Source: a virus. From it: 22,873 nt of DNA. The stretch is from UHGV virus genome UHGV-0188094; one strand, 5' to 3'. Shown one piece after another: positions 582 through 22,873 of this stretch. How positions within the stretch are numbered: position 1 is the first letter of the stretch; each line of letters starts with the position of its first letter. The position numbers and the translations under genes were made by a program. The notes beneath the pieces were generated by a model. That model made no database searches. It had not been told where the DNA came from and was given only the letters and a program-made list of their open reading frames with translations.

Positions 582-587
582 AATCAA

Positions 588-1428: not shown

Positions 1429-1496
1429 ATCCAGATCCCTACCTTTGCTATCAGAATCATTGTAATGATACACATAATATCAATATTGAGAACACT

Positions 1497-3639: not shown

Positions 3640-3651
3640 CAGGGTCGGATC

Positions 3652-4320: not shown

Positions 4321-4328
4321 AATATTAG

Positions 4329-4358
4329 TTGCCAGTACCGTATTGTTGCTACTGGCAA
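4329..4358. terminator. Hairpin between the convergent gpQ fragment and the ATPase gene (candidate terminator)
   Basis: Perfect 9-bp arms ttgccagta / tactggcaa with a 12-nt loop, flanked by AT-rich sequence. Confidence 0.35.
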
Positions 4359-4369
4359 TTGTAATAAAA

Positions 4370-6379: not shown

Positions 6380-6705
6380 TAGCTTATTTTTTCTTCTTTA
6401 AGAGATATTAGTTTCTCTTCATCCTCCTTAAGATCGCTACCAAGGGTAAATACACCTTTAATTTTATCTTGACTAAAATTTCTTTCAACAAAATCTTTAT
6501 TATATACGTAGCTTATTAAAGATATATTATTTTTCCATTTAATCGGACATGTTGGATATTGTTCAGGGTCATTAATAATTTTACTTATAGTTGTTTTACC
6601 TGCACCATTAGCTCCATATAAATAGTTAAATTTAGAAAGTCCATGTAAAAGCTGCGTAGGGCCATTATATGAGCCTACCTTGTCAATAACTACCTCTTCA
6701 ATCAT
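6379..6705 (-). CDS. N-terminal Walker-A part (108 aa) of the same ABC-type ATPase, separated from the downstream ORF by a frameshift (TAATG overlap)
   Basis: P-loop YLYGANGAGKTT at aa 28-39; RBS GAGGA upstream of the ATG at 6705. The stop TAA shares its last A with the ATG of the 669-aa ORF. One extra A in the A6 run (6387..6392 on the plus strand) would fuse the two into a single ORF of about 778 aa. Confidence 0.6.
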   Translation of the reverse strand: MIEEVVIDKVGSYNGPTQLLHGLSKFNYLYGANGAGKTTISKIINDPEQYPTCPIKWKNNISLISYVYNKDFVERNFSQDKIKGVFTLGSDLKEDEEKLISLKEEKIS

Positions 6706-6840
6706 CCTCTAATCCTCAAAAAACAGATTAATCCTATCAAATCAATGATAATAGAAGACATTACTTACCTAATTACAAGGTGATCATTTATACAGCTGTA
6801 AATAAATCAGGCTAATCATCTATTTGTCATAACGCGCGCT

Positions 6841-6859
6841 CGTATCCCCGCCACGCCTG
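6841..6859 (-). other. cos-like site (186-type cohesive-end core), inverse orientation
   Basis: The reverse complement of 6846..6857 is GGCGTGGCGGGG, which equals the first 12 nt of the 186 cohesive end as I remember it (GGCGTGGCGGGGAAAGCAT). The downstream bases diverge. Confidence 0.45.
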
Positions 6860-6901
6860 CCCGCTTTATGTAGTGGTTTTCATGCACCTGCATGATCTAC
6901 G

Positions 6902-6926
6902 CAAAAGCCCGCCAGTTCTGGCGGGC
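6902..6926 (-). terminator. Rho-independent terminator for the leftward A / tum-like / DinI-like transcript
   Basis: On the minus strand: stem GCCCGCCAG ... CTGGCGGGC followed by TTTTG (plus-strand aaaagcccgccagttctggcgggc). Confidence 0.65.
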
Positions 6927-7061
6927 CTTAGCAAAAACGATCCTCAAACGATCATGCGATCTCATGCGGCATAGACATGCACTACAGAGCTAACGCCTCG
7001 CAAGGGCTCGTTGTTCAACCTTGCTGACGCCAGAAGCAAGTTCAGACGCCAGCAACGTTTC

Positions 7062-7295
7062 TTAATGCAGCCAGCTGTCGTCTTCCCACACCTTCTGCAT
7101 AATTTTCATCACTTGTTTTCTTTCTTCGTCCAGTTGCAGTCCGGTTAGTTCCACACCGTTAGAGCTACCTTTGCGAATGCGAATTACCGTTTTGGGATAC
7201 AGGGGGCGCAGATTGCGGTAAAGCTCGGATTCAAGGGCGTCCAGGGTAGACTGGCTAATCTTCTGCTCTTTATCGATCATTATTTCAATGCGCAT
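7062..7295 (-). CDS. DinI-family protein (77 aa), as in the SOS-induced Tum/DinI modules of 186-like phages
   Basis: MRIEIMIDKEQKISQSTLDALESELYRNLRPLYPKTVIRIRKGSSNGVELTGLQLDEERKQVMKIMQKVWEDDSWLH follows the DinI pattern (MRIE..., hydrophobic core, C-terminal W and acidic tail). RBS GAGGTG lies upstream of this internal Met. Confidence 0.75.
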   Translation of the reverse strand: MRIEIMIDKEQKISQSTLDALESELYRNLRPLYPKTVIRIRKGSSNGVELTGLQLDEERKQVMKIMQKVWEDDSWLH

Positions 7296-7305
7296 AAAAG
7301 TCACC

Positions 7306-7494
7306 TCAGCTGATGACATCCATTGAGTGGTTGTATTCGTGGGTTCTGATTTTTGCCATGAGTTCATCAGTCAATTCAGAAACCCACTGTAGAGCCAGCC
7401 CCTTCTCTTCATCACTACACTCACTAGCCGCTACAAGCTTAAGAAAAAAATCAATGCGCTGGAGCTTCAAAGACTCCAAAAAATAGTCCTGCAT
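7306..7494 (-). CDS. Small hypothetical protein (62 aa) immediately downstream of a LexA box; possible Tum-like antirepressor partner
   Basis: ORF starting MQDYFLESLKLQRID... with RBS GGAGG 6 nt upstream of the ATG at 7494. Position matches the SOS-regulated right-end operon of 186. Confidence 0.5.
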   Translation of the reverse strand: MQDYFLESLKLQRIDFFLKLVAASECSDEEKGLALQWVSELTDELMAKIRTHEYNHSMDVIS

Positions 7495-7535
7495 CTTTCC
7501 TCCTATGACACCACACGCAATACTGTATGTATAAC

Positions 7536-7555
7536 CACTGTTTATATTTACAGTA
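7536..7555 (-). promoter_or_regulatory. LexA (SOS) box overlapping the promoter of the tum-like / DinI-like operon
   Basis: CTGT-N8-ACAG with an AT-only spacer (cactgtttatatttacagta), about 45 bp upstream of the 62-aa ORF start. Confidence 0.6.
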
Positions 7556-7647
7556 TATAATAATCTTACTGATGTAAAACGTTTTTTTACATTCATCAGC
7601 CTGATATGCCTGGTATTATTAAGAGCACGAATTGTTAACCCGCGTAA

Positions 7648-10062
7648 TTAATACAGGTTCCGCCACTGATCATCTTCCTGCAAACGCTGGTTCCGATAGA
7701 AGATACGCAGGCCTGCTCCTGACGGAATACTGCCTCCGCGAAGGAGTAAATCGATCTCTTTCTCGCTGCCATCAAATCCTCTGGACTTCAGCTCATACAC
7801 GAGCTGCAGTCGCTGATGGTCTGTAATTCGCTGTTTGTAGTCTTTACGCCGTTTCGGTTTCACCAGGCGTAACCTTGCTGCCAGTTCCCGGCGCTCTTTT
7901 TTGCTCATACTGTGCAGGTAATCGTGCAACTCCTTGTCATCCATGCTGGTAATGTCCGTTCTGGGGTCCCCATCAGCTGATTTATCTTTCTCCTGTTGGT
8001 TCAAATTTTCAGCAAGGGGACAGTTATTGCCACGAGTCCAAGGGGCGCAAGCGCCCTGGTCGGCTGCCGCCTCCTGAACGTCAACGGCCTTACGAACCAT
8101 TTTCCACTTCACTGCATGAGTGCAGATCTTGCCCTCTGCAATGGGTGACCAGATGCCATAAATACGAATGCCGTGATCGCCATAGGCGGTCGGCTCTTCG
8201 TTGATTTCATAAGCGGTTCTGATCAGGTGATATTTGCGGGGAACCAGTACGCCGCCCTGCTTCATGATGTAGGTGGCAAAACAACCAGCATCAGCAGCAG
8301 CCAGGATTGCATCAAGGCGCGGGTTATCCAGTACCGGCGCACCTGCTTTTTTGTCCCCCTGTTGCCTTGCCGCCTGACCAGCCAGCAATCGCAGTTCACG
8401 GTAAGCCTGACGCCCCGGAATGCCAAAGAAGCGGAATTGCTGAACACGATGCAGAGACGCCCAGGCATTAACGTATTCAGCATTATCACGCAGGGATTTC
8501 CCCGTTTCCTTGCTGATCTCGCCAGCCAGACCACGCCCGTCAATGTTCTTACTGATGTATTTCGCGATGTAGCTTGTTGGCGTACCTTTGCGCGGGTTAA
8601 TCAACTCAGACTTAAAGCGCGGCCCAGTGTTATTGCCCAGCTCCTCGCGGTCTTCACGGATGGCAAACTTACGCAGTAATACAGTGATGGCGCGGCGGTC
8701 TTTTTTGCGCATAAAACACAACAGGTGCCAGTGAACTGTACCGTCATGATGCGGCTCAGCCACCCGCACGCCATACCAGCGCAATCCGGCTTTGTGCATC
8801 GCCTTACGAAATGCAGCAAACATGCCGACCAGGTAATCACTACTTTGTCTTACCGTCGCATTTGTCCAGGTTGGGTTGGGCCTGCCGTTATTTAGCGTGG
8901 AATGGAAACGTGACGGACAGGTGATGGTGTAGAAAACGGCACAGTCACTGCGCATTTCAGCGATAAGCTCCAGACCTTTAACACAGGCCATCATCTCATT
9001 GCGGCGATGCGCCGGGTTGCTGCTGCTGGCGTTTACCACATCTTCCATATCCAGCGTGTCACCGTCTTCGTTCACCAGTTCATGAGAACGGAAAAACTCC
9101 AGCGACTTACGGCGCTGCTCACGTTTATGCATCACGGCTTCATAGCTGACATAGGGAGATGCTTTTTTGCTGACCAGACAGACAGCACGCAACTGCTCTT
9201 CCCGCCATTCGCAACGCATCTTCCATAATTTCCTATACCACCAGTCGGCGCACAGCATACGCGCCAGCGAACCCGGAATGAGTTCATAGGGCACGGGTTT
9301 ACGGCGGTTTCTTTTCCGACGGAGTTGCTCAAACGCAGGCGGGATGACATCCAGTCGCAGGGTTTCTGCTGCCACCTTTTCCCATGTCTTGCGGATTTCT
9401 TCTGGCTTAACATCATCGGTGGCGTACAAATCACCACAAGCGGCATCAAGACACATGCTCATATGCGCAGCGACAAGAGTAGACAGGCGTTTCACCTGAT
9501 CCTGACTCATTTCAGGCAGGATCAGCAGGCCGTCCAGCCCTTCATGGCTTGCCATAAAGCGAAAAGAAGTGGATAGCTGACTCTCGCGTACATGCTCCAG
9601 TCGTTCCAGACATGGCTTAATCGTCTCACGCAAATAGCGGGAATAAGCCTTTGGCCTGCCCAGGCTGCTGAAGTATTCGATACGTTGCATCAGCGGCTTG
9701 CTGATGTGGGTGGGCTGGGCGCTGACATCTGCCAGAATGACCATGTCTGGGTTAAAACGCTGCTGCTCATGCGCCAGCTTTGCCCGACTAATGAGCTTAT
9801 CCTGCTCCATTTCGCGCTGGACAGGATCACGGGATTCATTAAAGAAATAACGCTCCCAGACCTGATCACTCAGTGCCTCACGGCGCAGCAGTTCCTGCTC
9901 GTTATCGGCAGCGTACAGAGTGATCAGGTTTGAAAGCGCAGAAACCGGCGCAACTTCCGCCGGGTCCAGATAAGGGTTAATGGCCTTTTTCGGGCTGTTC
10001 CATGAGAACGATGCGGAAGCCTCGTTAAAGCCGCAGCAGTTGTTCATATCGGCATGGTTCAT
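7648..10062 (-). CDS. P2/186 gpA-type replication initiation protein (rolling-circle endonuclease), 804 aa
   Basis: Large ORF in the position of gene A downstream of the lysogeny-switch genes. Identification is from recalled family resemblance and synteny. Its ATG overlaps the stop of the upstream Dam-like gene (ATGA). Confidence 0.8.
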
Positions 10063-11018
10063 GCACGTACTCCGTACACGGCAGAACTATCCACGCCACG
10101 CGAATAATCAAATCCCACCCAGCAGCGCGGCCCGGAAACAGCGATGATTTCTGTTGCAGATTTACTCTCACCAGCTGCTACGCCGATGCTGCGTTTTGCC
10201 TTGATGTAGTGGTGAGTAAAATTGCGATACAGCGAACGGATCAGGGATGTGTCACTGTTAGAAATAATGACCGGATGTCCTTCTGATGACCGATGTTCAA
10301 GAACGGATGCCAGGTGATACTGGTCATCTTCAGTGAAGCCGTCAGTGTGATAACCGGAAAACGTGCCGTCATACGGCGGATCGCAATACACCACATCCCC
10401 CGCCTTCAACATCGCCAGCGTTTCATCAAAGCTGGCGCAGATAAACGTTGCCCGCTGGGCTTTTTCTGCAAATGCGCGAATTTCTTTTTCAGGAAAATAC
10501 GGATTTTTATAATTACCGTAGGGAATGTTGAAATGCCCGCTCTTGTTATAGCGACATAAACCACGGTAACCGTGACGATTGAGATACAGGAAATATACCG
10601 CTTTCATGAAATCAGTAATTTCAGTTGAGTAATTAAACTCCTGCCTTATGTTGTAATAAGCCACCTCCCTGTTTGCTTCCTCAAATAAAGCTCTGGCGCG
10701 AGATATAAACGATTCACAATCAGCAGCAACCTTTTTATAGAGGTTGATTAAATCAGGATTAATATCCGCAACAAGATAGCTGGGGTAGTGGATCTCCTGC
10801 GCTTCGTTCTGGATTGCTTCAGCGGTCACACGCAGCAGTTCTGCCGCTTCGACGTGGTTTAGCTGGCGGGATGTGATATGACACGCAAGACTATCAAGGC
10901 GGGCAGCCATTGCTTCAGCCCTTGCCCGGCGTTCTTCCAGACGAGCCTCTGTCAGTAAAATATTAAGCCCTGCGTCATCCGGTCCGATTTTAGTCGTGAG
11001 GGTTTCAATATTACGCAT
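10059..11018 (-). CDS. Dam-like N6-adenine DNA methyltransferase homolog with a replaced N-terminus that lacks the AdoMet-binding motif I
   Basis: The region [15 protein letters not shown]...[36 protein letters not shown]...[17 protein letters not shown]...PVIISNSD aligns to E. coli Dam from about residue 50 onward, including the DPPY catalytic motif. The first roughly 85 aa are Ala/Glu-rich helical sequence with no FxGxG or W-GGK motif. Start taken at the ATG at 11018 (RBS AGGAGA). Confidence 0.7.
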
Positions 11019-11085
11019 AATCAATTCTCCTGAATTTAGATAAAGGGATGCCCGGCGGGTTTACGCCATTAATTTCATTAGCTGG

Positions 11086-11427
11086 TTAATTCGGCATGGT
11101 TAGCCGTCTGGGAAATAAGCTCACCACTGCACGAAAATGATTCATTGCTTTAATCAACTCCCGCTTTTCGTCAGTGGTCAGCTCATTAATGCTGATGCTA
11201 TGACGTTCAGCTGGAATTTTTGCCATAAAGAATATGGCAGCCAGTGCCCGTTTATTTTGTTCGCTATTAATATCCCGTGGATCACGCATATCTTTAATAA
11301 ACCGCTCAAGCTCTGACTCAATATTAAGACCAAAAACTTTCGCTCTTAATTCCGCAATGTGATTAAGTCCATTCAGGCGTTCACCGGGGCTTAATGGAAC
11401 AGTCGCCGCAGCGCCTTCAATAGCCAT
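11086..11427 (-). CDS. Hypothetical phage early-region protein (113 aa)
   Basis: ORF with RBS GGGGGA 4 nt upstream of the ATG, in the early rightward operon between cII/fil and A. Confidence 0.5.
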   Translation of the reverse strand: MAIEGAAATVPLSPGERLNGLNHIAELRAKVFGLNIESELERFIKDMRDPRDINSEQNKRALAAIFFMAKIPAERHSISINELTTDEKRELIKAMNHFRAVVSLFPRRLTMPN

Positions 11428-11591
11428 TTGTTCCCCCGTTTTTTCGTTGATAGTTCTGCCAACAATTCATCTTGCGAACGGCACGGATGCCAGCGTTTAC
11501 CATCCTCACCCATGATCCAGCCGTGACCGTAGTGCATTGCCGGACTTTGTTTTACCAGCAGCGATGCAAATGATGGTTCTTTCGTCAGCAT
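11391..11591 (-). CDS. Small early-region protein (66 aa), at the position of 186 fil
   Basis: Internal Met (MLTKEPSFASL...) with RBS GAGGTG; starts 8 nt after the cII stop. Overlaps the next ORF by 37 nt in a different frame. Function is assigned by position only. Confidence 0.4.
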   Translation of the reverse strand: MLTKEPSFASLLVKQSPAMHYGHGWIMGEDGKRWHPCRSQDELLAELSTKKRGNKWLLKALRRLFH

Positions 11592-11598
11592 AAGCACC

Positions 11599-12108
11599 TC
11601 ACAGCAAACCGAATGAAGCACCGAGGCCAGTCACGGTATCAACTGCACTCGCCATCGCAGGATTAGCCTGTAAACGGGCCTGCAATGAAACAGCCGCCAG
11701 CGCCATCAGTCGTGTAACAGAGTTAATGCTGCTGATCGCATCACGACGGCCTGCACTGGTTTTTACATCGCCAGAAACCGCACCTGCCGCAACACGCCCG
11801 ATCTCTGCGGTTGCACTCATGACGTAATGTGGCAGTTTCTCTTTTGCTACCTCATTAATCGGTACACATGGCAGGCAGTGAATCTGTGCCAGAAAACCAT
11901 CTATCAGCGTTGAGTCTTCTGTCAGATCGGTAAGCAGCCAGATTTCTGGCGCATTGAGCTGATGCGGTTGATCTGGGTTGAGTTTGTTTCGCAGTGTCTG
12001 AACATTCATTCCTGCACGTTCTGCCAGCTTCGCCATATTGTGATGTAGTGCAAAAGCTCTACAGGCTTCATCAAAATGCGGGTGTTTGGAAATCTTATAA
12101 TCAAACAT
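11599..12108 (-). CDS. cII: 186 CII-like transcriptional activator (169 aa)
   Basis: Same length as 186 CII; N-terminal HTH region ...AKLAERAGMNVQTLRNKLNPDQPHQLNAPEIWLLTDLTEDSTLIDGFLAQIHCLPC...; sits after apl as in 186. Confidence 0.8.
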   Translation of the reverse strand: MFDYKISKHPHFDEACRAFALHHNMAKLAERAGMNVQTLRNKLNPDQPHQLNAPEIWLLTDLTEDSTLIDGFLAQIHCLPCVPINEVAKEKLPHYVMSATAEIGRVAAGAVSGDVKTSAGRRDAISSINSVTRLMALAAVSLQARLQANPAMASAVDTVTGLGASFGLL

Positions 12109-12140
12109 GCTACCCCCTTAGAAAGTTCTCATAATTGAAC

Positions 12141-12383
12141 TTACTTACCAACAATGACGCGGAAGTTGGAATGACCGAGGGATTCACGGACCTGATCGGT
12201 TTTGTACATTAAATAACGCAGGCTTACGCGGCCTTTGTTTTTTTCTTTCTTGACCATGTATTTAGCAAGCTGACCATGGTGAATTTTTTGATACACGGAG
12301 CCGCGGGAGATACCTTCCCATTCCGCGAACTCAGCAGGCGTTGCCATCTCTTTTGGTACACGAATTGAAATATCAGTACTCAT
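12141..12383 (-). CDS. apl: Apl/Cox-type excisionase and switch regulator (80 aa)
   Basis: Small HTH protein (ATPAEFAEWEGISRGSVYQKIHHGQL), first gene of the operon divergent from cI, as with 186 apl and P2 cox. Confidence 0.65.
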   Translation of the reverse strand: MSTDISIRVPKEMATPAEFAEWEGISRGSVYQKIHHGQLAKYMVKKEKNKGRVSLRYLMYKTDQVRESLGHSNFRVIVGK

Positions 12384-12499
12384 AGTGCAGTATCTCTTAG
12401 TTTGGTTTCGTTTTATCTTGTTTTATGTGGTTTGGTTTTGCTTTTCAAACCATAAATGGATATTAGGATCACTTTTTATATACGTCAAGAGGTTTGATT
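12384..12499. promoter_or_regulatory. Divergent promoter/operator region of the lysis-lysogeny switch (pR/pL analog)
   Basis: 116-bp intergenic region between the divergent apl and cI genes, with iterated ggttt/gttttg motifs. Individual promoter hexamers were not resolved. Confidence 0.5.
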
Positions 12500-13132
12500 A
12501 TGAGTTTAATAAAGGCGGGAAATGATAGTGGTGGGCGCGATGCAATTAACAGGCTTATTAAGGCTTACAACTTCAGCTCACGACAGCAGCTCTGCGAACA
12601 TCTGGAAGTATCAAAAAGCACTATGGCTAACAGATACTTAAGGGATAGCTTTCCTGCCGAATGGGTAATTCAATGTGCCCTTGAAACAGGAGCTTCCCTT
12701 CTATGGCTGGCTACTGGTCAAGGAGATATGTATGCGTGTGAGAACGAAGAAACAAATCTCAAAAATGAACCTCCTGTCACTGTAAGACCACTTTCTAAGA
12801 TCGTTGCTCCTAGCATCAAACGTGTTGAACTGAAGAACGGCGAACTGCAGCCAAGTGATGAAATTCTTCTTGATAGCAGCCTGCTCGATGGTGACTCATC
12901 CAACGCTTTATTTGTTAAAACAGCTAATAATAGCTTTGTAGTGGATACGTCCGTTAAACAAGTCAGTAATGGCTTCTGGTTAGTCGATATGGACGGAGTT
13001 AAAAGCATCGTTAAAATTGCGCGCATACCCGGAAACAAAATAGTAGTTAACCAAGATGACACTTCATTTGAATGTTCTGTAGATGATGTGGAAGTCGTAG
13101 GACGTGCAGTCAAAGTAATCAAGAACCTCTAA
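12500..13132 (+). CDS. cI: CI-type immunity repressor, two-domain (186 CI-like), about 210 aa
   Basis: N-terminal HTH (SSRQQLCEHLEVSKSTMANRYL...) resembling P2 C and 186 CI, plus a C-terminal domain. ATG at 12500 is preferred over the TTG at 12494 because of the RBS AAGAGG 7 nt upstream. Co-oriented with and just upstream of int. Confidence 0.7.
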   Translation: MSLIKAGNDSGGRDAINRLIKAYNFSSRQQLCEHLEVSKSTMANRYLRDSFPAEWVIQCALETGASLLWLATGQGDMYACENEETNLKNEPPVTVRPLSKIVAPSIKRVELKNGELQPSDEILLDSSLLDGDSSNALFVKTANNSFVVDTSVKQVSNGFWLVDMDGVKSIVKIARIPGNKIVVNQDDTSFECSVDDVEVVGRAVKVIKNL

Positions 13133-13135
13133 CTT

Positions 13136-14155
13136 ATGACCATCAGAAAACAGCCGAACGGAAAATGGTTGTGTGAGTGCTATCCCAATGGACGCAATGG
13201 TAAGCGCGTGCGTAAGCAATTTGCTACCAAAGGCGAAGCCATTGCGTTTGAAAGCTTCACAATGGAAGAAGTGAACAAAAAACCGTGGTTAGGAGAAAAG
13301 GATGATCGGCGACACCTATCAGAATTAATTGAGCTTTGGTATTCCCTGTATGGTCAGACACTCGCAGACCCCAAGCGCCTCATGGCGAAACTTAGAATTA
13401 TCTGTAATGGTCTAGGCGACCCCATCGCCTCAGAACTGACAGCCGGTGACTTTACGAAATACCGCGAAGCACGGTTAAAAGGTGAAGTACGAAATGAAGA
13501 TGGGACGCTTATGTCGCCCGTTAAGCCCCGCACGGTAAACCTCGAACAGCGCAATCTATCATCGGTGTTCGGTACATTAAAAAAACTAGGACACTGGTCA
13601 GCACCAAACCCGCTGGCAGGACTTCCAACCTTCAAAATTGCCGAAGGTGAGCTGGCTTTTCTTTCCATGGACGAAATCAAGCGCCTGTTGGCTGCATGTG
13701 CTGAATCTCAAAGCCCCAGCTTATTAATGATTGCCAAAATATGTTTGGCTACCGGCGCACGTTGGAGCGAAGCCGAAAACCTGCATGGCCACCAAATATC
13801 GAAATACCGAATTACTTATATAAAGACAAAAGGTAAGAAAAACAGAACAGTACCGATATCACAGGAACTATATGACGAACTCCCCAAGCACAGAGGGAAG
13901 TTATTCACGCCATGCAGAAAAGCCTTTGAGCGTGCAGTAAAGCGGGCCGGTATTGAACTTCCGGAGGGGCAATGCACCCATGTATTACGTCATACATTCG
14001 CCAGCCATTTTATGATGAACGGCGGAAACATACTGGTACTACGCGATATTCTGGGCCATGTGGATATAAAAATGACGATGATTTATGCCCACTTTTCCCC
14101 TGACCACCTAGAAGATGCGGTAACAAAAAACCCACTGTTTAATTTAAAATGGTAA
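13136..14155 (+). CDS. int: P2/186-type tyrosine integrase (339 aa)
   Basis: N-terminus ...GRNGKRVRKQF..KGEA.AFE... and C-terminal motifs ...ATGARWSEA..., ...HVLRHTFASHF..., ...GHVDIKMTMIYAHF parallel P2 Int (R, H-x-x-R, catalytic Y). Confidence 0.85.
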   Translation: MTIRKQPNGKWLCECYPNGRNGKRVRKQFATKGEAIAFESFTMEEVNKKPWLGEKDDRRHLSELIELWYSLYGQTLADPKRLMAKLRIICNGLGDPIASELTAGDFTKYREARLKGEVRNEDGTLMSPVKPRTVNLEQRNLSSVFGTLKKLGHWSAPNPLAGLPTFKIAEGELAFLSMDEIKRLLAACAESQSPSLLMIAKICLATGARWSEAENLHGHQISKYRITYIKTKGKKNRTVPISQELYDELPKHRGKLFTPCRKAFERAVKRAGIELPEGQCTHVLRHTFASHFMMNGGNILVLRDILGHVDIKMTMIYAHFSPDHLEDAVTKNPLFNLKW

Positions 14156-15690
14156 ATTTAACGATGAAAAGATTGAAATCAGTTTCCGATGCAGTTATCC
14201 AACTCAGATTAAATGCGGTAAAAGCAAGTATTCAAAGCGTCAATCCAAACGAGTTTATAACACATTGCCTTGATTATAACCTCCAGAAATTTAACAATCA
14301 GCTTGAAATGTTACAACACCTACCATGGGTTGTGAATTTATGCATTAAATGGTCCGCCAGTGCGCTGGGTAAAAAACGGAAATTTAAACATATTGACAGA
14401 CCTGGTGCTGTCAGGTTGCTACAACGAGCATATGAGGAACTAAGTATAATTCCAACTGGTCTGGAAAATATAGACAAAGGGATTAACTTTTTCCTTAGAA
14501 ATACGTTATATCAACAAGGTATTTATCAAAGATTAGATGCTTTAAATACAATTAGCAGACAAGTTTTCTTGTTTTCTTCCTTAGATGACAACAATAGAAT
14601 CAAGCGTAGATTCAAAGAACTTACTGATGTTGATATAAACGATTTTCTAAAACTATCATTTGTGTTAGTATCACTCGTTACCTTACAAGCACCAGTAAAG
14701 AAAATAACAATAGATTCTTTCGCAGCTCTTTACTCCGTAATACCTAAAGATACAATCGAGAAATTTCTGAATACTATATCTATCCCTTACGAAGAACTAG
14801 CTCGGTTTTGCTGTACAAAAGATAATGAGACACCTTTAGTAGAATATTATGCTCCATCGCCTTTCTTAGAAAAACCTTTCATCAAATTCGAAGGAAATTA
14901 TCACCAAATACATACGCAGCTAACTTCGACCAGTATACAAACCTTTATATATGATTTGCTTCGCAGAGATGATGCAGAATCGTTCATGGACAAATTTGGG
15001 CGAGTTTTCGAAAATGCAGTCAACCAGCTATTAGATGAAAGTGGAATTGCTTATATTGCTGAAGGAAATTTAAAAGAATATCTACCTCAAGAGAATAAAG
15101 TTGTAGATTTTCTACTACCTCATGATGAAGCTAACATTTTCATCGATGCTAAAGGTGTTGAGATAAACCAAAAGGGAATGGTTACACTACGACCAGGGGA
15201 TATTTCTGCCAATATAAAAAGCTCCGTATTAAAAACTATAGAACAAGCACACTCAGTAAATAGAGAGCTAATTAAAAAAGGTAACCAAAATTTTTCTTTT
15301 AAAAAAGAGTCCTACATTTTATGTCTTACTTATAAAAATTTATTCCTTGGAAATGGTACATTTCTAAATAAATCCTATGCTAACATCGAAATGAAAAAAA
15401 TCCGAGATAGGCATTCAGAAGAATATCAAATACCTGATGAGAACATTTTCTGCATATCATTTGAGGAATTCGAGTATCTGCTATCTTCTTGCAAGGAATA
15501 CTCAAAACCTGTACATGAGGTACTGCGAGAAGCTGTAGTTAGAAACCAAACACCATCAAGTGCAGTTTTCCTTTTTGCACATCATATCCGTGACTCATTC
15601 CCCAAAATACGTTCATCTGAGATCGTCAGGCTCGCAGGCTTGAGCGAGATCAACCATATCGTTGAACGATTAGAGCAAGCTGGCTCTTGA
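14149..15690 (+). CDS. Cargo protein (513 aa) with a central PD-(D/E)xK-like nuclease motif; function unknown, candidate defense or abortive-infection factor
   Basis: AT-rich ORF whose ATG overlaps the last codons of int. Candidate motif E305 ... VVD320FLLP ... IFID333AK335 (about 15046..15170). No family recognised by eye. Confidence 0.55.
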   Translation: MVNLTMKRLKSVSDAVIQLRLNAVKASIQSVNPNEFITHCLDYNLQKFNNQLEMLQHLPWVVNLCIKWSASALGKKRKFKHIDRPGAVRLLQRAYEELSIIPTGLENIDKGINFFLRNTLYQQGIYQRLDALNTISRQVFLFSSLDDNNRIKRRFKELTDVDINDFLKLSFVLVSLVTLQAPVKKITIDSFAALYSVIPKDTIEKFLNTISIPYEELARFCCTKDNETPLVEYYAPSPFLEKPFIKFEGNYHQIHTQLTSTSIQTFIYDLLRRDDAESFMDKFGRVFENAVNQLLDESGIAYIAEGNLKEYLPQENKVVDFLLPHDEANIFIDAKGVEINQKGMVTLRPGDISANIKSSVLKTIEQAHSVNRELIKKGNQNFSFKKESYILCLTYKNLFLGNGTFLNKSYANIEMKKIRDRHSEEYQIPDENIFCISFEEFEYLLSSCKEYSKPVHEVLREAVVRNQTPSSAVFLFAHHIRDSFPKIRSSEIVRLAGLSEINHIVERLEQAGS

Positions 15691-15819
15691 TTGCACAATT
15701 GCAAATTGGCGACAAATTGGCGGCAGAGCATTAAAAATGCGTAAAATAAACAAACACCAAATAATACTAATATGCTGTTTTAAAACATAAATATATGTTT
15801 TTATCATAATAATAATGGT

Positions 15820-15868
15820 ATGTAGGAATTTCGGACGCGGGTTCAACTCCCGCCAGCTCCACCAAATA
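15820..15868. repeat. attR of the P2/186-type prophage and attL of the downstream island: second copy of the 49-bp ssrA 3' end
   Basis: Identical to 533..581. Confidence 0.85.
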
Positions 15869-15933: not shown

Positions 15934-16030
15934 CGTCTATTGTAGTCTAGTGAGAATTGCTGAGAACTACGAGTTATGGCACCCTGAATGGGACCCACGA
16001 AGATGGGTCCTAAAATCGAGGGTCCCAAAC

Positions 16031-17260
16031 ATGGCCAAAATCGCTAAGAAGCTCACTGACACTGAAATCAAAAGCACCAAACCTGCCGAAAAAGAGGTTA
16101 ACCTTTTTGACGGCGATGGTTTGCTGTTGCGAATCGCTCCCCTGGCGAAGGGAGGGAAGAAAAATTGGTATTTCAGATATGCAGTGCCTGTGACCAAAAA
16201 GCGAACTAAGGTGAGCTTAGGAACCTATCCTCACCTTACACTTGCGAAGGCACGAGCTTTACGTGATGAATACTTGTCGTTGCTTACAAATGGTATAGAC
16301 CCCCAAGTTCATAACAACCAAAAAGCCAATGCACTGAAAGATGCCACGGAACATACATTTCAAGCAGTAGCCAAGAAGTGGCTTGATGAGAAAGTCAAAA
16401 CGTCAGGCATCTCCCAAGATCATGCTAACGACATCTGGCGAAGCCTAGAGAGAAATATCTTTTCCACATTGGGTGATACCCCAATTAAGGAGATTCGCCC
16501 TAAAATGCTTAAACAGCATTTAGAACCCATAGAAAAACGAGGTGTCCTTGAAACACTTCGCCGCATCATATCCCGCCTGAATGAAATTTTCCGCTATGCA
16601 GCAACAGAAGAACTCATAGAATTCAACCCGGCAGACAACCTGGGGCAACGGTTCAGCAAGCCAAAAAAACAGAATATGCCAGCATTACCCCCTTCCGAAC
16701 TCCCTCGCTTCTTGGTTGCTCTAAACAATGCTTCTATCCGTTTGGAAACAAGGCTACTGATTGAGTGGCAACTTCTCACATGGGTTCGCCCAGGTGAAGC
16801 TGTTCGCACAAGATGGTCAGATATTGATATTGAAACTGGCATGTGGAACATCCCGGCGGAGTTTATGAAAATGAAGAAGCCTCACAAAGTTCCACTGAGC
16901 AAAGAAGCTTTGCGAGTTTTGGATTTAATGAAAGTCATCAGCGGGCATAGAGAGTGGGTGTTCCCCAGTATCAAAGCTCCACTCAATCACATGCATGAAC
17001 AAACAGCTAATGCGGCCATAATCCGTATGGGTTTCGGAGGTGAGCTTGTAGCTCACGGTATGCGATCCATTGCTAGAACGGCTGCTGAGGAGTCTGGCAA
17101 GTTTAGGACTGATGTCTTAGAAGCCGCCCTTGCCCACTCGAAGAAAGATGAAATAATTGCAGCCTACAATCGTGCAGAGTATCTCACTGAACGGGTGGTT
17201 CTCATGCAATGGTGGAGTGACTATGTTTCGTCTCAAAAATGCAAAGTTATTGCCGCATAA
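16031..17260 (+). CDS. P4-family tyrosine integrase (IntA/SlpA-like)
   Basis: MAKIAKKLTDTEIKSTKPAEKEVNLFDGDGL..., ...DIWRSLERNIF..., ...VPLSKEALRVLD..., ...HGMRSIARTA..., ...AYNRAEYLTERVVLMQWW are P4-integrase hallmarks. Start taken at the ATG at 16031; the ORF track's upstream GTG at 15950 would run into the terminator. Confidence 0.85.
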   Translation: MAKIAKKLTDTEIKSTKPAEKEVNLFDGDGLLLRIAPLAKGGKKNWYFRYAVPVTKKRTKVSLGTYPHLTLAKARALRDEYLSLLTNGIDPQVHNNQKANALKDATEHTFQAVAKKWLDEKVKTSGISQDHANDIWRSLERNIFSTLGDTPIKEIRPKMLKQHLEPIEKRGVLETLRRIISRLNEIFRYAATEELIEFNPADNLGQRFSKPKKQNMPALPPSELPRFLVALNNASIRLETRLLIEWQLLTWVRPGEAVRTRWSDIDIETGMWNIPAEFMKMKKPHKVPLSKEALRVLDLMKVISGHREWVFPSIKAPLNHMHEQTANAAIIRMGFGGELVAHGMRSIARTAAEESGKFRTDVLEAALAHSKKDEIIAAYNRAEYLTERVVLMQWWSDYVSSQKCKVIAA

Positions 17261-17323
17261 CTCTCCCATGATGGATTAACTATCTTGATTTAGTTAAAGA
17301 ATTAATAATCACACCATTAACCT

Positions 17324-17372
17324 ATGTGGACTAAGCATAGCCATTTACAAATGGGGACATTGAGTCCACATA
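17324..17372. repeat. Composite 49-bp palindrome upstream of the serine recombinase gene (candidate recombination or operator site)
   Basis: Outer arms tatgtggact / agtccacata and inner arms ccattt / aaatgg, placed symmetrically around a central AC dinucleotide (17348..17349). Confidence 0.5.
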
Positions 17373-17542
17373 ACGAAAGCTGTCGGTCATATCAGCTAAA
17401 TAATTCACATCTCTTCTCGATTATCATACACCTCGAAGATCTACCAAATTCGCTCTAATCAATGATAAAACAGTTGAATTCGGTTGAAATTTGATCAATT
17501 TTATCCACTACATTGTATTGAATCATCCATGAGGTTTCGTGC

Positions 17543-19099
17543 ATGGCTAGCGAAAATGACAAAAATCATAGAGTTAGGGTCGCGCAGTACTTGAGGATGT
17601 CTACCGACCATCAGCAATATTCTTTACATAATCAGTCCGAATATATCAAAGATTATGCTGAAAAGAACAATATGGAAATCGCTTATACCTACGATGATGC
17701 AGGTAAGAGCGGAGTCAGTATCGTAGGCAGGCATTCTTTGCAGCAGTTACTTAGCGATGTAGAACAAAAGAAAATAGATATACAGGCTGTATTATTTTAT
17801 GATGTGAGCCGTTTTGGTCGTTTTCAAAATAGTGATGAAGCGGCATATTATTCCTTTCTATTTGAGAGAAATGGTGTAGATCTTATATATTGTTCCGAAC
17901 CTATACCCACTAAAGATTTCCCTTTAGAGTCCTCTGTTATACTGAATATAAAAAGATCTAGTGCTGCATATCACAGCAGGAATCTATCTGAAAAGGTATT
18001 TATAGGGCAAGTAAATTTAATAAAGCTTGGTTATCATCAAGGCGGTATGGCTGGTTATGGGCTGAGACGTCTTTTAGTAGACGAAAATGGCATAGCTAAA
18101 GAAATATTGAGTTTCCGCAAAAGAAAGAGTATTCAAACAGATAGGGTAATATTAATTCCGGGACCAAAAAATGAAATAAAAATTGTAAATAGAATATATG
18201 ATCTCTTTATAGATAATAACGTCCCAGAATTCATTATTGCTGAGAGATTAAATGAACAGAACATACCTGCAGAAAATGGAACATTATGGACTCGTGCAAA
18301 AATACATCAAATTTTGACAAATGAAAAATATATTGGAAACAACATATATAACAAAACCTCATCTAAATTAAAAAGTAGGCTTGTAAAAAACCCCAAACAT
18401 GAATGGGTTAGATGTGACAAGGCATATAAACCTATTATTTCAAAGAAAAAATACAATAAAGCTCAAGAAATAATTCAGCTCCGATCCATTCATTTGACTA
18501 ATGAAGATCTATTAGAAAAACTAAAACAAAAATTAGAATCTAATGGAAAACTATCAGGCTTTATCATTGATGAAGATGATACAGGCCCTTCATCTTCTGT
18601 TTATAGAACCCGATTTGGTGGTCTTTTAAGAGCATATACTTTGATTGGTTATAAGCCAGAACATGATTACAGCTATCTCAAAATAAATGAAGCACTAAGA
18701 TCATTTTACTCAGAGATAATTGAGGATTTTAAGGGTGAAATTTTAAAAAGTAACTGTCATATAGACGAGTATAAATATGCCCCAATGCTTTACATCAATG
18801 ATGAGTTTTTAATTTCCGTCCTTGTTACTAAATGCATACATATGAAATCAGGTAAACTTAGATGGAAAGTCCGGTTTGATAACTCACAGAAAGCAGACAT
18901 AACAATTGTTATACGAATGAATTCACAAAATATTTCACCTCTTGATTTTTATATCATACCAAAGATTGAAAACGAATATAATAAAATGTGCATGACGGAA
19001 ACAAACAACATTCGATTAGATCTCTATAGATTTGATAATCTTGATAAACTTCTACAAATTATTACTCGCATGAAAGTGAGGGAACTATATGCTGCCTGA
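17543..19099 (+). CDS. Large serine recombinase (518 aa)
   Basis: N-terminal resolvase catalytic domain (VAQYLRMSTDHQ with the catalytic Ser; ...DDAGKSG...; ...FYDVSRFGRF...) followed by a recombinase-type domain (GYGLRRLL...). RBS GAGG 8 nt upstream. Confidence 0.8.
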   Translation: MASENDKNHRVRVAQYLRMSTDHQQYSLHNQSEYIKDYAEKNNMEIAYTYDDAGKSGVSIVGRHSLQQLLSDVEQKKIDIQAVLFYDVSRFGRFQNSDEAAYYSFLFERNGVDLIYCSEPIPTKDFPLESSVILNIKRSSAAYHSRNLSEKVFIGQVNLIKLGYHQGGMAGYGLRRLLVDENGIAKEILSFRKRKSIQTDRVILIPGPKNEIKIVNRIYDLFIDNNVPEFIIAERLNEQNIPAENGTLWTRAKIHQILTNEKYIGNNIYNKTSSKLKSRLVKNPKHEWVRCDKAYKPIISKKKYNKAQEIIQLRSIHLTNEDLLEKLKQKLESNGKLSGFIIDEDDTGPSSSVYRTRFGGLLRAYTLIGYKPEHDYSYLKINEALRSFYSEIIEDFKGEILKSNCHIDEYKYAPMLYINDEFLISVLVTKCIHMKSGKLRWKVRFDNSQKADITIVIRMNSQNISPLDFYIIPKIENEYNKMCMTETNNIRLDLYRFDNLDKLLQIITRMKVRELYAA

Positions 19100-19985
19100 A
19101 AAAAATGAATTCCCAATAATTCAAATTGAGATTGCAAAAATAAAATTTCTTAACCCACGAACAAGAAATAAGGTAGTGCATGAAGAAATAAAGGAAAGCA
19201 TAAAAAAAAGAGGATTAAGCAAGCCAATAAGCGTAAGAGCTATTGATGAAGGCGATTTCAAATATGCTTTAATTTGTGGTCAAGGGAGAATAGAGGCTCT
19301 CGTTGCATTAGGTGAAACTATTATTCCAGCAATTATAAGAGATGTATCAGAAGAAGATGCTTACGTTATGAGTTTAGTTGAAAACATTGCAAGGAGAAGA
19401 CCACGTTCTAATGAGTTATTACAGGTGATTAAAGACATGAAAATCAGAGGACTTTCAGACTCCGAAATAAGTGAGATTACTGGATATTCATCGAACTGGG
19501 TGAGCAGTATTAATATGCTACTTGATAAGGGAGAGCATAAACTTCTCTCAGCAGTCGAACGGGGTAATTTGCCTCTGTATCTCGCAGTGCAATTTGCAAG
19601 ATGTGAAACTGAGGAAGCACAAGATATTCTTACCGAAGCATATGATAAAAAATTAATAAAAAGTCGGGACATTATAAAGATAAAACACATTCTAAATCAA
19701 AGAACAGTTGGGAATAAAGGTGCAAAAGCAGCCGGATTTTATTATCACAAACCATCAAAAAGGATGACTGCAGAGGAGTTGATTGAGCTTTATGAAAATA
19801 GTATCGCTGAACATAAATCTGTTTATAACAACTCAAAATTCATAAAAACCAACCTACTAATAGTAAATGAGATTTTTAACATCATAATGATGAATAAAAG
19901 CTTTCAACATATACTTGAACAAGAGAATCTTTCAGAACTACCATCTCAGATATTAACCCCAGTAAACAAAGAGGTATTAAAATGA
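19089..19985 (+). CDS. ParB/Srx-domain DNA-binding protein with HTH (298 aa), first of two
   Basis: N-terminal ParB-like motif (...KPISVRAID...LICGQGRIEALVALG...) and an HTH (GLSDSEISEITGYSSNWVSSI). Its ATG lies 8 nt upstream of the recombinase stop, so the reading frames overlap by 11 nt. Confidence 0.65.
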   Translation: MLPEKNEFPIIQIEIAKIKFLNPRTRNKVVHEEIKESIKKRGLSKPISVRAIDEGDFKYALICGQGRIEALVALGETIIPAIIRDVSEEDAYVMSLVENIARRRPRSNELLQVIKDMKIRGLSDSEISEITGYSSNWVSSINMLLDKGEHKLLSAVERGNLPLYLAVQFARCETEEAQDILTEAYDKKLIKSRDIIKIKHILNQRTVGNKGAKAAGFYYHKPSKRMTAEELIELYENSIAEHKSVYNNSKFIKTNLLIVNEIFNIIMMNKSFQHILEQENLSELPSQILTPVNKEVLK

Positions 19986-20878
19986 TTCAGATACGTTTTG
20001 GCGATAATTTTATTTACCTGGAAACTAATAAGTTAATTCCATCTAAGGAATTATTAGAAAACGTAAAGCGAAGCCATAAATATCATCAAATAGTTACCTC
20101 TATCGAAAGCTTAGGTATTATTGAACCAATAATAGTATTCTATGACAAAGATAAAGATGTCACTAAGATACTTGATGGCCATTTAAGGGTTGAGGCTTTA
20201 AAAGACTTAGGTATAGAAAAAGCTCCATGTATACTTTCGAGCATAGATGATGCTTTCACTCCTAACAAACAAGTGAATCATATAAATGTAGTTGAAGAAC
20301 ATAGAATGATAATTAAGTCTCTGGCAAAAGTATCAATTGAAAAACTTAGTGCTGCTTTGGGCATATCTGTTGATGCCATAAAAGATAAAGCGAATGTGAT
20401 GAACGGCATAGATCCAAGTGTAATTGCGAAACTTTCTGATAAACCTATACCTAAGGCTACATTTGACGTTTTGAGGAAAATGAAGCCAATTCGCCAAATT
20501 GAAGCAGTCGGTACAATGATTAATTTTGATAATTATAGTAAAAAATTTGCAATGAGCATCTTGGATGCAACACCGGCATCGATGATAGTAAATAAAGGGA
20601 AAAACACTCCCTATAAAAAGGACATAAAAAAAACCATACTTCGTCTGGAACAAGAAATGGCAACAACTTCGGAAGAAACGAAAAAGCTTCAAACCGAGTA
20701 TGGTTCAGATATGTTGAAATTCGTTATAATCCAGTCATATATTAATAAATTACTTGGCAATTCTAAAGTTCTTCATTGGTTCTTAGAAAACGAGGTTGAT
20801 TATCTTAATGAGTTAAAAAGAATTTCTAGAATAAATTCTTTGGATGATAAGACTCTTACTGAAAACAGCAAGTCATAG
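19982..20878 (+). CDS. ParB/Srx-domain DNA-binding protein with HTH (298 aa), second of two
   Basis: N-terminal ParB-like motif (...ILDGHLRVEALKDLG...) and an HTH (SIEKLSAALGISVDAIKD). ATG overlaps the upstream stop (ATGA). Confidence 0.65.
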   Translation: MIQIRFGDNFIYLETNKLIPSKELLENVKRSHKYHQIVTSIESLGIIEPIIVFYDKDKDVTKILDGHLRVEALKDLGIEKAPCILSSIDDAFTPNKQVNHINVVEEHRMIIKSLAKVSIEKLSAALGISVDAIKDKANVMNGIDPSVIAKLSDKPIPKATFDVLRKMKPIRQIEAVGTMINFDNYSKKFAMSILDATPASMIVNKGKNTPYKKDIKKTILRLEQEMATTSEETKKLQTEYGSDMLKFVIIQSYINKLLGNSKVLHWFLENEVDYLNELKRISRINSLDDKTLTENSKS

Positions 20879-21533
20879 TCATGGTTTTATATAGCCTAAA
20901 TAAACCAAGAAGTATACTTACACAACGACCTTCACGCCGAAGAAGCTGTCAGATACGCCAGCAACCAAAGCATTACGTTTAAGTGTCAGTCATTGATACG
21001 AAGGGATAACTGCGTATCAGCAGCCGGACATTGAGTCGAATAAAGGCTGGTAGAGAGGGACAGTTCTGTGTCACCGGGAGATTCGTCAGAAACATCAGCG
21101 GCAGAACAGATGAACCAGCAATTGGTAGTGCACAGAAAACTCTCCAGTATTTAATTATTCAACTTAACACTAAAAAAAATCACATAGTTAATATCATAAT
21201 TTTTCTTTGGTCTACGTATGCGAGAGATATTGTGGCTTTAACCGGGTATTAGGAGTCGTTTCAGATAAAAGATGTTCTTCGATTCGACTGGACTTGGTAA
21301 TAGCAATAAGTAATCGTTAATATTGAAGGACGAAAGGCTACTTCAAAACAAAGTAACCTTTCCAATATTCCCATCTATGGGACAAGTGGTACATTAACTG
21401 CACATAGTGCAGGATACATATGACATAAAACTTTTTATTTATGGCATACATTATAAATAACTTGTATTTTATGAATGTCAATAGGTTCTTGTTTAATACT
21501 TTTAAAATTATTAATTGATTGTTTTTATTATAG

Positions 21534-21553
21534 CTTCGCTTGTACAAGCGAAG
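21534..21553. repeat. Perfect 20-bp palindrome in a non-coding AT-rich stretch
   Basis: cttcgcttgt|acaagcgaag, with further imperfect inverted repeats in 21590..21660. Confidence 0.5.
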
Positions 21554-22107
21554 ATCCTATTGTTCTTGAATGAATAATGCCAATTATAAGAGAAGCAAGG
21601 GCTAACTCTGCGAAGCCGCTGCGCTTGCTTCTTCGAGTTCCCCTTGCTTTTCTGCCCTTCGGTTATAAAAGAAGCCAAACTGCTACCAACCTTGAATCTC
21701 TATATTTTTGAATAGACAAACATTACCCGCTCCCTTAATCACCACTATCAAAAATAAAAAATCATCTTACAAATAACCCCATACACATCATTTTAGATTG
21801 CGACCTTATTAAATTAAAAATTCAACCTTAGATGGAATTTAATGTACAAGGAATGTCCTACTGTAACGGAGAATTTTAAACATTAAAAATTACAACTATG
21901 GTTTGTCATAGCCTGTACATCTATTCACCTCATGCATATGCACTAAGAAAGCTTTTTTGAATACTGGAGTTGTCCCTGCTAAAACGGACACGGCTAATTA
22001 ACTGCTAATATGGCATCACGATATTCGCGTGGCGATTTCATGTTCAACCCCTTGTGTGGATGCAGATTATTATAATCCTCTATCTATTCTGCCATTGTTT
22101 CCATCAT

Positions 22108-22314
22108 TTAGACTGCATCCAGCAGATCATCTACGTACACATAATCCCGCTTGAACGTCTTTACAAACGATTCTGCCATGCCGTTACTTCCCGGACTGCG
22201 TACTGGTGTAGTACACACGATGAACCACAGTGAACTAGCGAATGTGCGCGTGGCATCGGCTGTGCAGCAATTATGCCAATGACACTGGCTCCATTGACGG
22301 CAATGACCTGACAT
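22108..22314 (-). pseudogene. IS2-like (IS3 family) transposase OrfB remnant
   Basis: ...TTPVRSPGSNGMAESFVKTFKRDYV... matches the conserved C-terminal integrase-core segment of IS2 OrfB as I recall it (...[22 protein letters not shown]...). Flanking sequence is degenerate and no intact transposase ORF is present. Confidence 0.5.
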
Positions 22315-22474
22315 CTACAATCCCGCTACAAAGCATTTACTCCATGAGTCATTGCACTTGCTGAGCTACACGAACACACTAAAACCAGATAATAATTAAT
22401 CGCTGTATAAGCTCGTAACAAGCGGAACTTTAAGGCAAAATAGGGCCATCTTCCCCCTTCATAAGGTTACGCTA

Positions 22475-22873
22475 ATGGCCAGAAAACCTAAAGAAATCAA
22501 AACAGACCCGTTAGAGGTCATCCTGTGGAAAGCGGCAGACAAACTGCGTAAAAACATTGATGCAGCCGAGTACAAGCACGTCGTACTAGGCCTCATTTTC
22601 CTTAAGTACATTTCTGATTCTTTTGAATCTCATTATGAGTTGCTGAAAGCCGGTAAAGGCGAGTTCGCAGGTGCTGATCCGGAAGACAAAGACGAGTACA
22701 CCGCTTACAACGTTTTCTTTGTCCCTGAGCTTGCACGTTGGAACTATCTGATTTCTAAGGCCAAGCTTCCTGAAATCGGTAAGATGGTTGATGATGCGAT
22801 GGAGCTTATCGAAGCGGGCAATCCACAGTTAAAAGGTGTGTTGCCGAAAGTCTATGCCCGACAAAACCTCGAC
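22475..22873 (+). CDS. hsdM: Type I restriction-modification methyltransferase subunit HsdM, N-terminal 133 aa (runs off the window end)
   Basis: [51 protein letters not shown]... is the characteristic HsdM N-terminal domain. Not in the ORF track because there is no in-window stop. Confidence 0.8.

Follow-up and report, generated by a model that had tools for sequence, protein, structure and literature searches.

A large-serine-recombinase-type gene coupled to two ParB-like genes forms a conserved cassette beside variable defense cargo

Introduction

Large serine recombinases (LSRs) are integrases, excisionases or transposases of mobile elements, and ParB proteins of the KorB type silence transcription without ParA. 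Here we describe a locus in which genes of these two kinds are joined. The virus genome UHGV-0188094 (22,873 nt; hereafter the window, meaning the whole stretch analyzed) is an Escherichia coli ssrA locus that carries three overlapping genes for an LSR-type protein and two ParB-like proteins, ParB-A and ParB-B (together the trio, or cassette). The cassette is real, widespread and apparently uncharacterized: its parts are known, and their combination is undescribed in the searched literature. No description of the trio was found there, with most subscription journals outside the coverage of the search, so that a description may already exist; the accession of the E. coli recombinase is named in one paper only, beside an Stx2l prophage "inserted at parB" (PMC9227347).

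The LSRs closest to the first protein are the SPbeta SprA, Bxb1 and phiC31 integrases, CcrA/B of SCCmec and TnpX. These enzymes of phages and mobile elements have in common with the trio recombinase, itself encoded in a mobile island, an N-terminal serine catalytic domain and, after it, a "recombinase" domain. The trio recombinase differs from them in having no zinc ribbon/coiled coil, a C-terminal domain of its own family and a coupling to two ParB-like genes; it scores far below the cut-off of the CcrB model, and no att sites are known for it. The ParB, Spo0J and RepB proteins of ParABS and repABC loci, together with Noc and KorB, share with the two small proteins a ParB N-domain and a helix-turn-helix (HTH); the small proteins are predicted to fold like CTP-bound ParB, Noc and KorB, and ParB-A has their pocket motifs. 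Unlike ParABS and repABC loci, the trio has no ParA/RepA and no RepC, no parS array was found, its two tandem ParBs are divergent (ParB-B lacks the ENxxR motif), and both are coupled to a recombinase in islands beside defense cargo.

The nearest published parallel to the trio is the integration module of the Dehalococcoides ssrA islands, which consists of six genes: the serine recombinases DsiB and DsiA, a RecF-like protein, a 210-aa ParBc protein, a Mom-like protein and a primase-like protein (PMC3146451). Compared by description, the two resemble each other in the ssrA site, in the pairing of a CcrB-like recombinase (~540 aa in Dehalococcoides) with a ParB-domain protein and in the variable cargo that adjoins them; the Dehalococcoides module differs in that the att repeat lies inside dsiB and no tyrosine integrase is present (PMC3146451). 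A conserved edge module with variable defense genes on one side is also seen in Tn7-like elements, P4-like satellites, integrons and pipolins, the last described as defense platforms (PMC11551731). The enzymes there include TnsABC, PolB with a tyrosine recombinase, and IntI, whereas the trio has an LSR and a ParB pair, for which no attC-like boundary sites were found.

Results

The trio is an operon conserved as a unit

The original prediction, made from the letters of the window, described a translationally coupled, AT-rich operon with overlapping stop/start codons, carried as island cargo. The gene coordinates (Table 1) were borne out: the recombinase and ParB-A open reading frames (ORFs) overlap by 11 nt and those of ParB-A and ParB-B by 4 nt, the GC content of the trio is 31-34% vs. 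43-55% in the flanks, and the coupled operon does lie within an ssrA island. Comparison of E. coli variants gave a dN/dS of 0.04-0.26 for every gene of the trio, and all copies are free of stop codons. All three genes are under purifying selection, and the low dN/dS, the stop-free copies and the recurrence of the ordered trio at ~70 of 80 unrelated loci show that the genes are real.

The trio was found in 655 of 5426 complete E. coli genomes (12%), including BL21 but not K-12, always in the chromosome and in one copy per genome; no E. coli plasmid carries it. An initial search for homologues of the E. coli recombinase returned only proteins of >96% identity, useless for modelling. When one genome per species was scanned, >521 relatives were recovered, and 80 loci were kept for tblastn. 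The recombinase, ParB-A and ParB-B stand in the same order and spacing at ~70 of these, the remainder being cut by contig ends or disrupted. The trio is thus kept as a unit in other genomes, and a lack of co-occurrence, which would have spoken against the original prediction, was not what the neighborhood survey showed. The hosts are Enterobacterales, Alpha-, Beta- and Gammaproteobacteria, and the trio also occurs on plasmids (90 records, 58 of them conjugative), among them pAtC58 (the pAt plasmid of Agrobacterium fabrum C58), Sinorhizobium megaplasmids and a 30-kb Paraburkholderia plasmid, as well as on a 7.5-kb gut-metagenome contig. Homologues ~40% identical to ParB-B in Rhodovulum and Paraburkholderia have the same two genes upstream, and both gene order and overlapping codons are kept there, on pAtC58, on the 30-kb plasmid and on the gut contig. 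Protein identity reaches 90-97% across different alphaproteobacterial genera and therefore points to recent horizontal transfer. In distant Enterobacterales the alignable homology is limited to the three genes, and the protein database holds >8000 recombinase clusters at E<=1e-20. Matches in viral contigs are mostly prophage-edge inclusions like the present window. Hits at "3-4 places per record" on S. meliloti plasmids, which might suggest a transposon-like multicopy element, are probably the true repB of repABC and were not used as evidence.

The absence of a ParA partner also held: none is annotated in the identical RefSeq region, and ParA is not among the 25 most frequent Pfam families of 233 flanking genes from ~75 loci, a census in which a rare case could be missed. 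Since the ParA-less state is conserved across many loci, the trio is not a partition cassette that lost ParA only here. As the original prediction had supposed, the trio does not map to any known partition/resolution cassette or to any PADLOC defense model.

Domains and conserved residues of the three proteins

Profile searches of the three proteins recovered Resolvase and Recombinase domains in the first and ParB_N and RepB domains in the two others. In the recombinase the matches are to Resolvase (PF00239, 7.7e-22) and Recombinase (PF07508, 6e-22), and the catalytic residues R18, S20, Q24, D87, S89, R90 and R93 vary little or not at all among 38-68 homologues. In structure comparisons the protein matched the SprA, Bxb1 and A118 integrases best. 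The protein therefore has two of the LSR hallmarks, the serine catalytic domain and the PF07508 domain past helix E. The zinc ribbon with coiled coil, the part of LSRs that discriminates between att sites and binds the RDF, is missing: there is no PF13408 match and residues 313-518 contain just two Cys, although the model is of low confidence at 316-378, where a remote structural analogue of the zinc ribbon/coiled coil is possible. The C-terminus forms instead a separate, family-specific domain of ~200 aa. With 63 bits for the CcrB and 41 bits for the CcrC model, against an NCBIfam equivalog cut-off of 900, the protein falls outside the SCC Ccr family. Nor is it a small serine resolvase or invertase of the Tn3 res or Hin/Gin type (~180-200 aa with a C-terminal HTH), given its 518 aa and LSR-type domain, and a repeat search of the window found no paired res/hix-like sites near the gene. 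The first ~60 residues of the C-terminal domain (LSGxIIDE...PSS..Y..RFG.L..AY) recur in some other proteins (350-740 aa; P0362, P0394 and P0386 among them), where 4-7 copies stand in tandem.

Both small proteins have the ParB_N plus HTH make-up of centromere-binding ParBs, and no cognate ParA/RepA Walker ATPase was seen beside them in the annotation and family census given above. ParB-A matches ParB_N (1.6e-13) and RepB (8.5e-8) in Pfam, and Spo0J (1vz0, 2.5e-12), CTP-bound Myxococcus xanthus ParB and Noc among PDB sequences. It keeps the nucleotide-pocket motifs GxGR (GxxR, box II) and ENxxR (box III), conserved as CGQGR-EA and VEN-AR in 75 homologues, and by these motifs its pocket appears to be of the CTP type. 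ParB-B matches RepB (2.2e-24) and, slightly below the gathering score, ParB_N (1.1e-5). It has an invariant DGHLRxEA, an HTH and a long C-terminal helix, and in the family alignment it lacks the ENxxR box, so that its CTP pocket is probably degenerate. Its AF2 model (pLDDT 79) nevertheless resembles CTP-type ParB, Noc and KorB structures, and its profile matches Noc (7ol9) at 5.7e-9. The GQGRIEA and DGHLRVEA motifs of the original prediction are present and fall in columns that are conserved throughout each family (ParB-A, C-G-Q-G-R-x-E-A; ParB-B, L-D-G-H-L-R-x-E-A). The same prediction called the two proteins paralogous-looking. This is right for their shared domain architecture and length, and less so for their sequences, which are 30% identical over 63 N-domain residues (BLASTP E=0.001); they are only distant paralogues.

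The cassette borders variable, defense-rich cargo on its 3' side

The P4-type tyrosine integrase upstream of the trio lies outside the cassette, yet in E. coli the two rarely occur apart: at >=90% identity, this ssrA allele is present in ~650 genomes, an almost one-to-one relation to the 655 with the trio. The cargo after the trio varies among type I restriction-modification (R-M) genes in the window, Hxs with TIGR04141, and RelA/SpoT with NACHT; in BL21 the trio is followed by just IS1 and then core genes. The segment 15820-21673 is homologous in locus L093, where the cargo is different, and in Enterobacter (L010), an arrangement we call the "type A" island. "Type B" islands part from the window at ~20927, and what comes next there is a second integrase 3' end (244 bp, 81% identity), most simply explained by tandem island accretion and subsequent deletion. 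In E. coli I2 and E200086 (L008:12434-12677 and L009:12434-12677) this fragment lies 47 bp past the trio and is followed by TIGR04141 and HxsABCD; in I2 the whole block belongs to a tRNA-Arg island and is preceded by a truncated integrase.

For ~75 non-redundant loci, a tally was then made of the two closest large ORFs to either side. The 3' neighbors match 382 PADLOC families, vs. 79 for the 5' neighbors, and include WYL regulators (7), DpdE/SNF2 helicases (4), pAgo with SIR2-APAZ (3), PLD-helicase, PbeA and DUF6119. The 5' neighbors are mostly housekeeping genes (PolA, SmpB, transporters) and elsewhere the island integrase or att site. In L094 a PLD nuclease and a metallophosphatase flank the cassette. 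The association with defense is strong but one-sided, and a mobile-element anchor fits it at least as well. The trio proteins themselves have little in common with PADLOC-DB v2.0.0 models: there is no match for the recombinase or ParB-A, and the sole match of ParB-B is to the N-terminus, itself ParB-like, of a type II methyltransferase (MTase) model (2.2e-7).

In several alphaproteobacteria an att remnant derived from tRNA-Ser, TGGCGGAGG, is found at 100-150 nt from the 5' side of the cassette; the remnant is the reverse complement of the tRNA-Ser 3' end and is preceded by native sequence from downstream of tRNA-Ser. The tRNA-Ser gene itself is found further right, beside another integrase, of the serine or the tyrosine type and in some cases truncated. 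In these genomes the cassette marks the island edge, with variable cargo on its 3' side. The second, unrelated LSR gene beside tRNA-Ser was seen in Rhodobacterales at L038:11107-11907, L058:1940-2417 and L063:15630-16097 and in L044, L068 and L079. In Erwinia sp. JUb26, 129-nt direct repeats (L013:6964-7092 and 13006-13134; 91% identical, palindromic) flank the trio and an IS110-family transposase. We considered these as element ends and rejected them; they are palindromic and probably belong to an intergenic repeat family targeted by the insertion sequence (IS).

Non-coding sequences around the cassette

The leader between integrase and recombinase contains two palindromes. The larger one, at 17323-17372, is a weakly supported candidate for a protein-binding or crossover site: in L008, a variant of 94% identity, the outer arms have changed with no compensating substitutions, and other Enterobacterales showed no counterpart. 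The smaller, GATC-containing palindrome at 17487-17502 has better company. The sequence AAAATTGATCAATTTT stands at the same relative position (-56..-41) before the recombinase gene in Rahnella (L014) and Erwinia (L023), near-identical versions occur in L020 and L019, and enterobacterial copies share the palindrome AAATTGATCAATTT ~45 nt upstream of the operon; no array of it was found. A second copy with 2 mismatches lies at 18299-18314, and the count across the window is not above chance.

Downstream of ParB-B, no significant RNA fold was found at 20879-21170 (z=-1.1 vs. shuffles) and no Rfam match, and in the tail at 20879-22480 no trace of the integrase or trio proteins reached significance. 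An ~80-nt sequence with the hairpin GAAGCAAG...CTTGCTTC (21593-21670 in the window; L092:16618-16686) marks where the post-tail cargo begins to differ, and is also found between cargo genes of L092, an ssrA island without the trio. As a repeated cassette-boundary site it was rejected, being essentially single-copy per genome in ~594 E. coli genomes.

Copies outside Enterobacterales have additional parts. A small divergent gene stands upstream in alpha- and betaproteobacterial copies and on the gut contig; it has no Pfam match in the proteobacterial copies tested and encodes a winged HTH on the gut contig. In alphaproteobacterial copies, a conserved non-coding block of ~200 nt begins 15-25 nt past the ParB-B stop and ends sharply at a terminal hairpin, with unrelated flanks beyond. 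RNAalifold predicted 55 pairs in this block, of which 21 show compensatory changes in both partners and many are G-U pairs when the coding strand is read. With a covariance model the block was found only in alphaproteobacterial loci, always directly 3' of ParB-B; the model has no match in the window or in other Enterobacterales, and no Rfam family matches the element. The second LSR gene mentioned above has lost its 5' part in L038, where it is a pseudogene that runs up against the terminal hairpin and interrupts it.

Layout of the window

The order of features is tmRNA, P2-like prophage, second ssrA 3' repeat, P4-type tyrosine integrase, trio and type I R-M genes (Table 1). The ssrA gene (215-577) is the single RNA gene of the window by ARAGORN and Rfam. 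Its 3' end occurs only at 553-577 and 15840-15864, an exact match of 25 nt. The site is thus occupied in tandem, by the P2-like prophage and then by the integrase island, with the 46-nt tmRNA 3'-end repeat as separator. GapS1 starts 7 nt ahead of the stop codon of the P2-type integrase, at a cargo hotspot of P2. The candidate defense gene PDC-S06 is split into ORFs at 6379-6705 and 4370-6379, which correspond to positions 1-107 and 122-726 of one PADLOC model; it is either a frameshifted gene or pseudogene, or a truly split gene. Past the trio there is ~0.8 kb of non-coding sequence, then an IS fragment and hsdM (type I R-M), which begins near 22476.

Table 1. Coordinates of the features discussed (positions in the window unless a locus is named)
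Feature	Position	Strand	Remarks
P2-like prophage	~578-15820		Between ssrA and the repeated ssrA 3' end
PDC-S06 candidate defense gene, split	4370-6705	-	In the P2-like prophage
CI repressor	12494-13132		P2-like prophage
P2-type integrase	13136-14155		P2-like prophage
GapS1 anti-phage gene	14149-15690		NCBIfam 4.5e-120
Second copy of ssrA 3' end	15821-15866	+	46-nt repeat; boundary between prophage and trio island
P4-type tyrosine integrase, ssrA island	15950-17260	+	Pfam Arm-DNA-bind_3, Phage_int_M, Phage_integrase
Leader, integrase stop to recombinase start	17262-17542	+	Presumed promoter/operator; conserved with the trio among E. coli variants
Imperfect 50-bp palindrome	17323-17372	.	24-nt arms, 75% complementary, 2-nt spacer; candidate protein-binding/crossover site
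GATC-containing palindrome AAATTTGATCAATTTT	17487-17502	.	~45 nt upstream of recombinase start; candidate operator
LSR-type protein, 518 aa	17543-19099	+	Pfam Resolvase and Recombinase
ParB-A, ParB/Noc-like, 298 aa	19089-19985	+	Pfam ParB_N and RepB
ParB-B, RepB-like ParB paralogue, 298 aa	19982-20878	+	Pfam RepB and ParB_N
Non-coding tail	20879-21673	+	Travels with integrase and trio in "type A" islands; variable cargo beyond ~21673
IS integrase-core (rve) remnant	22108-22314	-	Between trio tail and hsdM; pseudogene in the identical RefSeq region
~200-nt RNA-like element	L058:10888-11092		Also in L022, L030, L036, L043 and others

Discussion

A mobile-element function fits the trio best, given the kind of enzyme that it encodes, its spread by horizontal transfer and its placement with variable cargo on one side only. 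The reading we favor, with a probability of roughly 0.35, is that the trio is a recombination/DNA-handling module of defense-island elements, the two ParBs marking and regulating the DNA on which the recombinase acts. The cassette would be self-contained and horizontally exchanged, and would serve as a conserved anchor at one edge of variable defense islands or plasmid accessory regions. ParB-A, with its seemingly intact CTP-type pocket, and ParB-B, with its degenerate one, would assemble near the cassette into a nucleoprotein complex or clamp with sequence specificity; a candidate binding site is the palindrome with GATC that precedes the operon by 45 nt. Such a complex would autoregulate the operon and position or license the catalytically intact recombinase, which would site-specifically move, resolve or exchange the cassette along with its 3' cargo. 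We infer every biochemical step of this scheme, and likewise its DNA substrates.

Several observations weigh against it. No recombination sites were identified and no terminal repeats surround the cassette in the window; downstream of the cargo, no consistent additional copies of the terminal hairpin were found that could serve as cassette boundaries. Canonical LSR integrases recognize att through a zinc-ribbon/coiled-coil domain that is missing from this recombinase, and there is a single copy of the cassette per E. coli genome. Mobility could also be due entirely to other integrases that the islands carry, which in E. coli, Rahnella and Paraburkholderia are of the tyrosine type; Rhodobacterales islands have another LSR. 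An ssrA integrase allele of 87.5% identity is found without the trio, other cargo beginning right past the integrase stop at ~17258, so that islands of this kind can do without it. The one-sidedness has exceptions as well: toxin-antitoxin or Abi genes stand on both sides of the cassette on pAtC58 (AbiE/Fic) and on the Paraburkholderia plasmid (HigA, RelE and Abi), the pattern expected of a defense system. A bolder version of the same idea, which we think quite improbable, makes the LSR, directed by a heteromeric ParB-like NTP clamp and in Alphaproteobacteria also by the ~200-nt structured RNA, the engine of an unrecognized island builder that would capture, exchange or mobilize defense cargo at its 3' border, much as an integron or "bridge" system does.

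The same neighbors could mean that the trio is itself a new defense or exclusion system against phages, plasmids or other mobile elements, which we regard as possible though on the unlikely side. The ParBs would sense foreign DNA or load on it as NTP-dependent clamps and the recombinase would be the effector, held silent by autoregulation or, outside Enterobacterales, by the divergent HTH regulator; a small divergent (winged) HTH gene does stand alongside the cassette in many lineages. GapS1 and PDC-S06 in the adjoining P2-like prophage, the type I R-M genes downstream, the AbiE, Fic, Abi, HigA and RelE genes on the two plasmids, the PLD nuclease and metallophosphatase of L094 and the enrichment of 3' neighbors in PADLOC families are all in line with it, and in E. 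coli the trio fills the slot right after the ssrA integrase that holds cargo in the related island. The enrichment, however, is one-sided, as expected for an island-edge gene, and integrases and transposases show the same guilt by association. Apart from the N-terminus that ParB-B shares with the MTase model, no PADLOC v2 model matches. A recombinase effector would be without precedent: we know of no defense system that uses a serine recombinase in this way. Rather less likely is a stabilization module for excised islands and plasmids, in which the recombinase would resolve multimers and the two ParBs would act on a centromere-like site, without ParA, in positioning, silencing or copy control. 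Its domain logic recalls the "resolvase plus ParB" stability regions of plasmids, and the many plasmid records, over half of them conjugative, the CTP-pocket motifs that ParB-A shares with partition ParBs and the fold match to KorB, a ParA-free silencer, agree with it. Yet most copies are chromosomal, in islands without replication genes nearby, the carrier megaplasmids already have repABC, ParA is not among the families shown for the flanking genes, no centromere-like repeat array was found, and the recombinase is of the LSR type rather than a small resolvase with a C-terminal HTH.

Two further explanations concern the origin of the cassette. The original prediction considered a nested integrative element, inserted beside the integrase by its own serine integrase. 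The LSR fold and the attP-like upstream palindrome of 50 bp with its 2-bp center would suit such an element, as would the cassette of I2 and E200086, bracketed by integrase 3' ends, and the tRNA-Ser islands of L038 and L061, only ~5 kb long, in which the trio recombinase is the sole intact recombinase. In the window, target-site duplications and terminal direct or inverted repeats were sought around the trio and none was found; the conserved block stops at the gene borders or fuses with the integrase block, and its right limit varies with the island type (20927 vs. 21673). The palindrome is not conserved, homology in distant Enterobacterales is confined to the three genes, the bracketing integrase fragment is explained equally by tandem accretion and deletion, and the island has its own tyrosine integrase, while E. 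coli genomes hold one copy each, always in the chromosome. An autonomous nested element is therefore highly improbable here, and the trio in the window is not an independently bounded one. That the trio is a functionless, decaying remnant of a plasmid partition/resolution cassette without its ParA is hardly credible at all. Pfam and NCBI do label both small proteins as partition proteins, but the idea is contradicted by the purifying selection on all three genes and by the conservation of the ParA-less arrangement at ~70 loci across classes, with invariant catalytic and pocket residues. We concluded that the trio is not a ParABS partition locus.

How defense islands assemble is an open question. 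The fixed site of the trio beside variable defense cargo suggests a role in building, moving or maintaining defense islands, or else an unrecognized conflict system. With BL21 as a carrier and K-12 as a non-carrier, the function is directly testable in standard strains, and either outcome would give a new role to ParB-type CTP switches and to LSRs, the latter being also tools for genome engineering.

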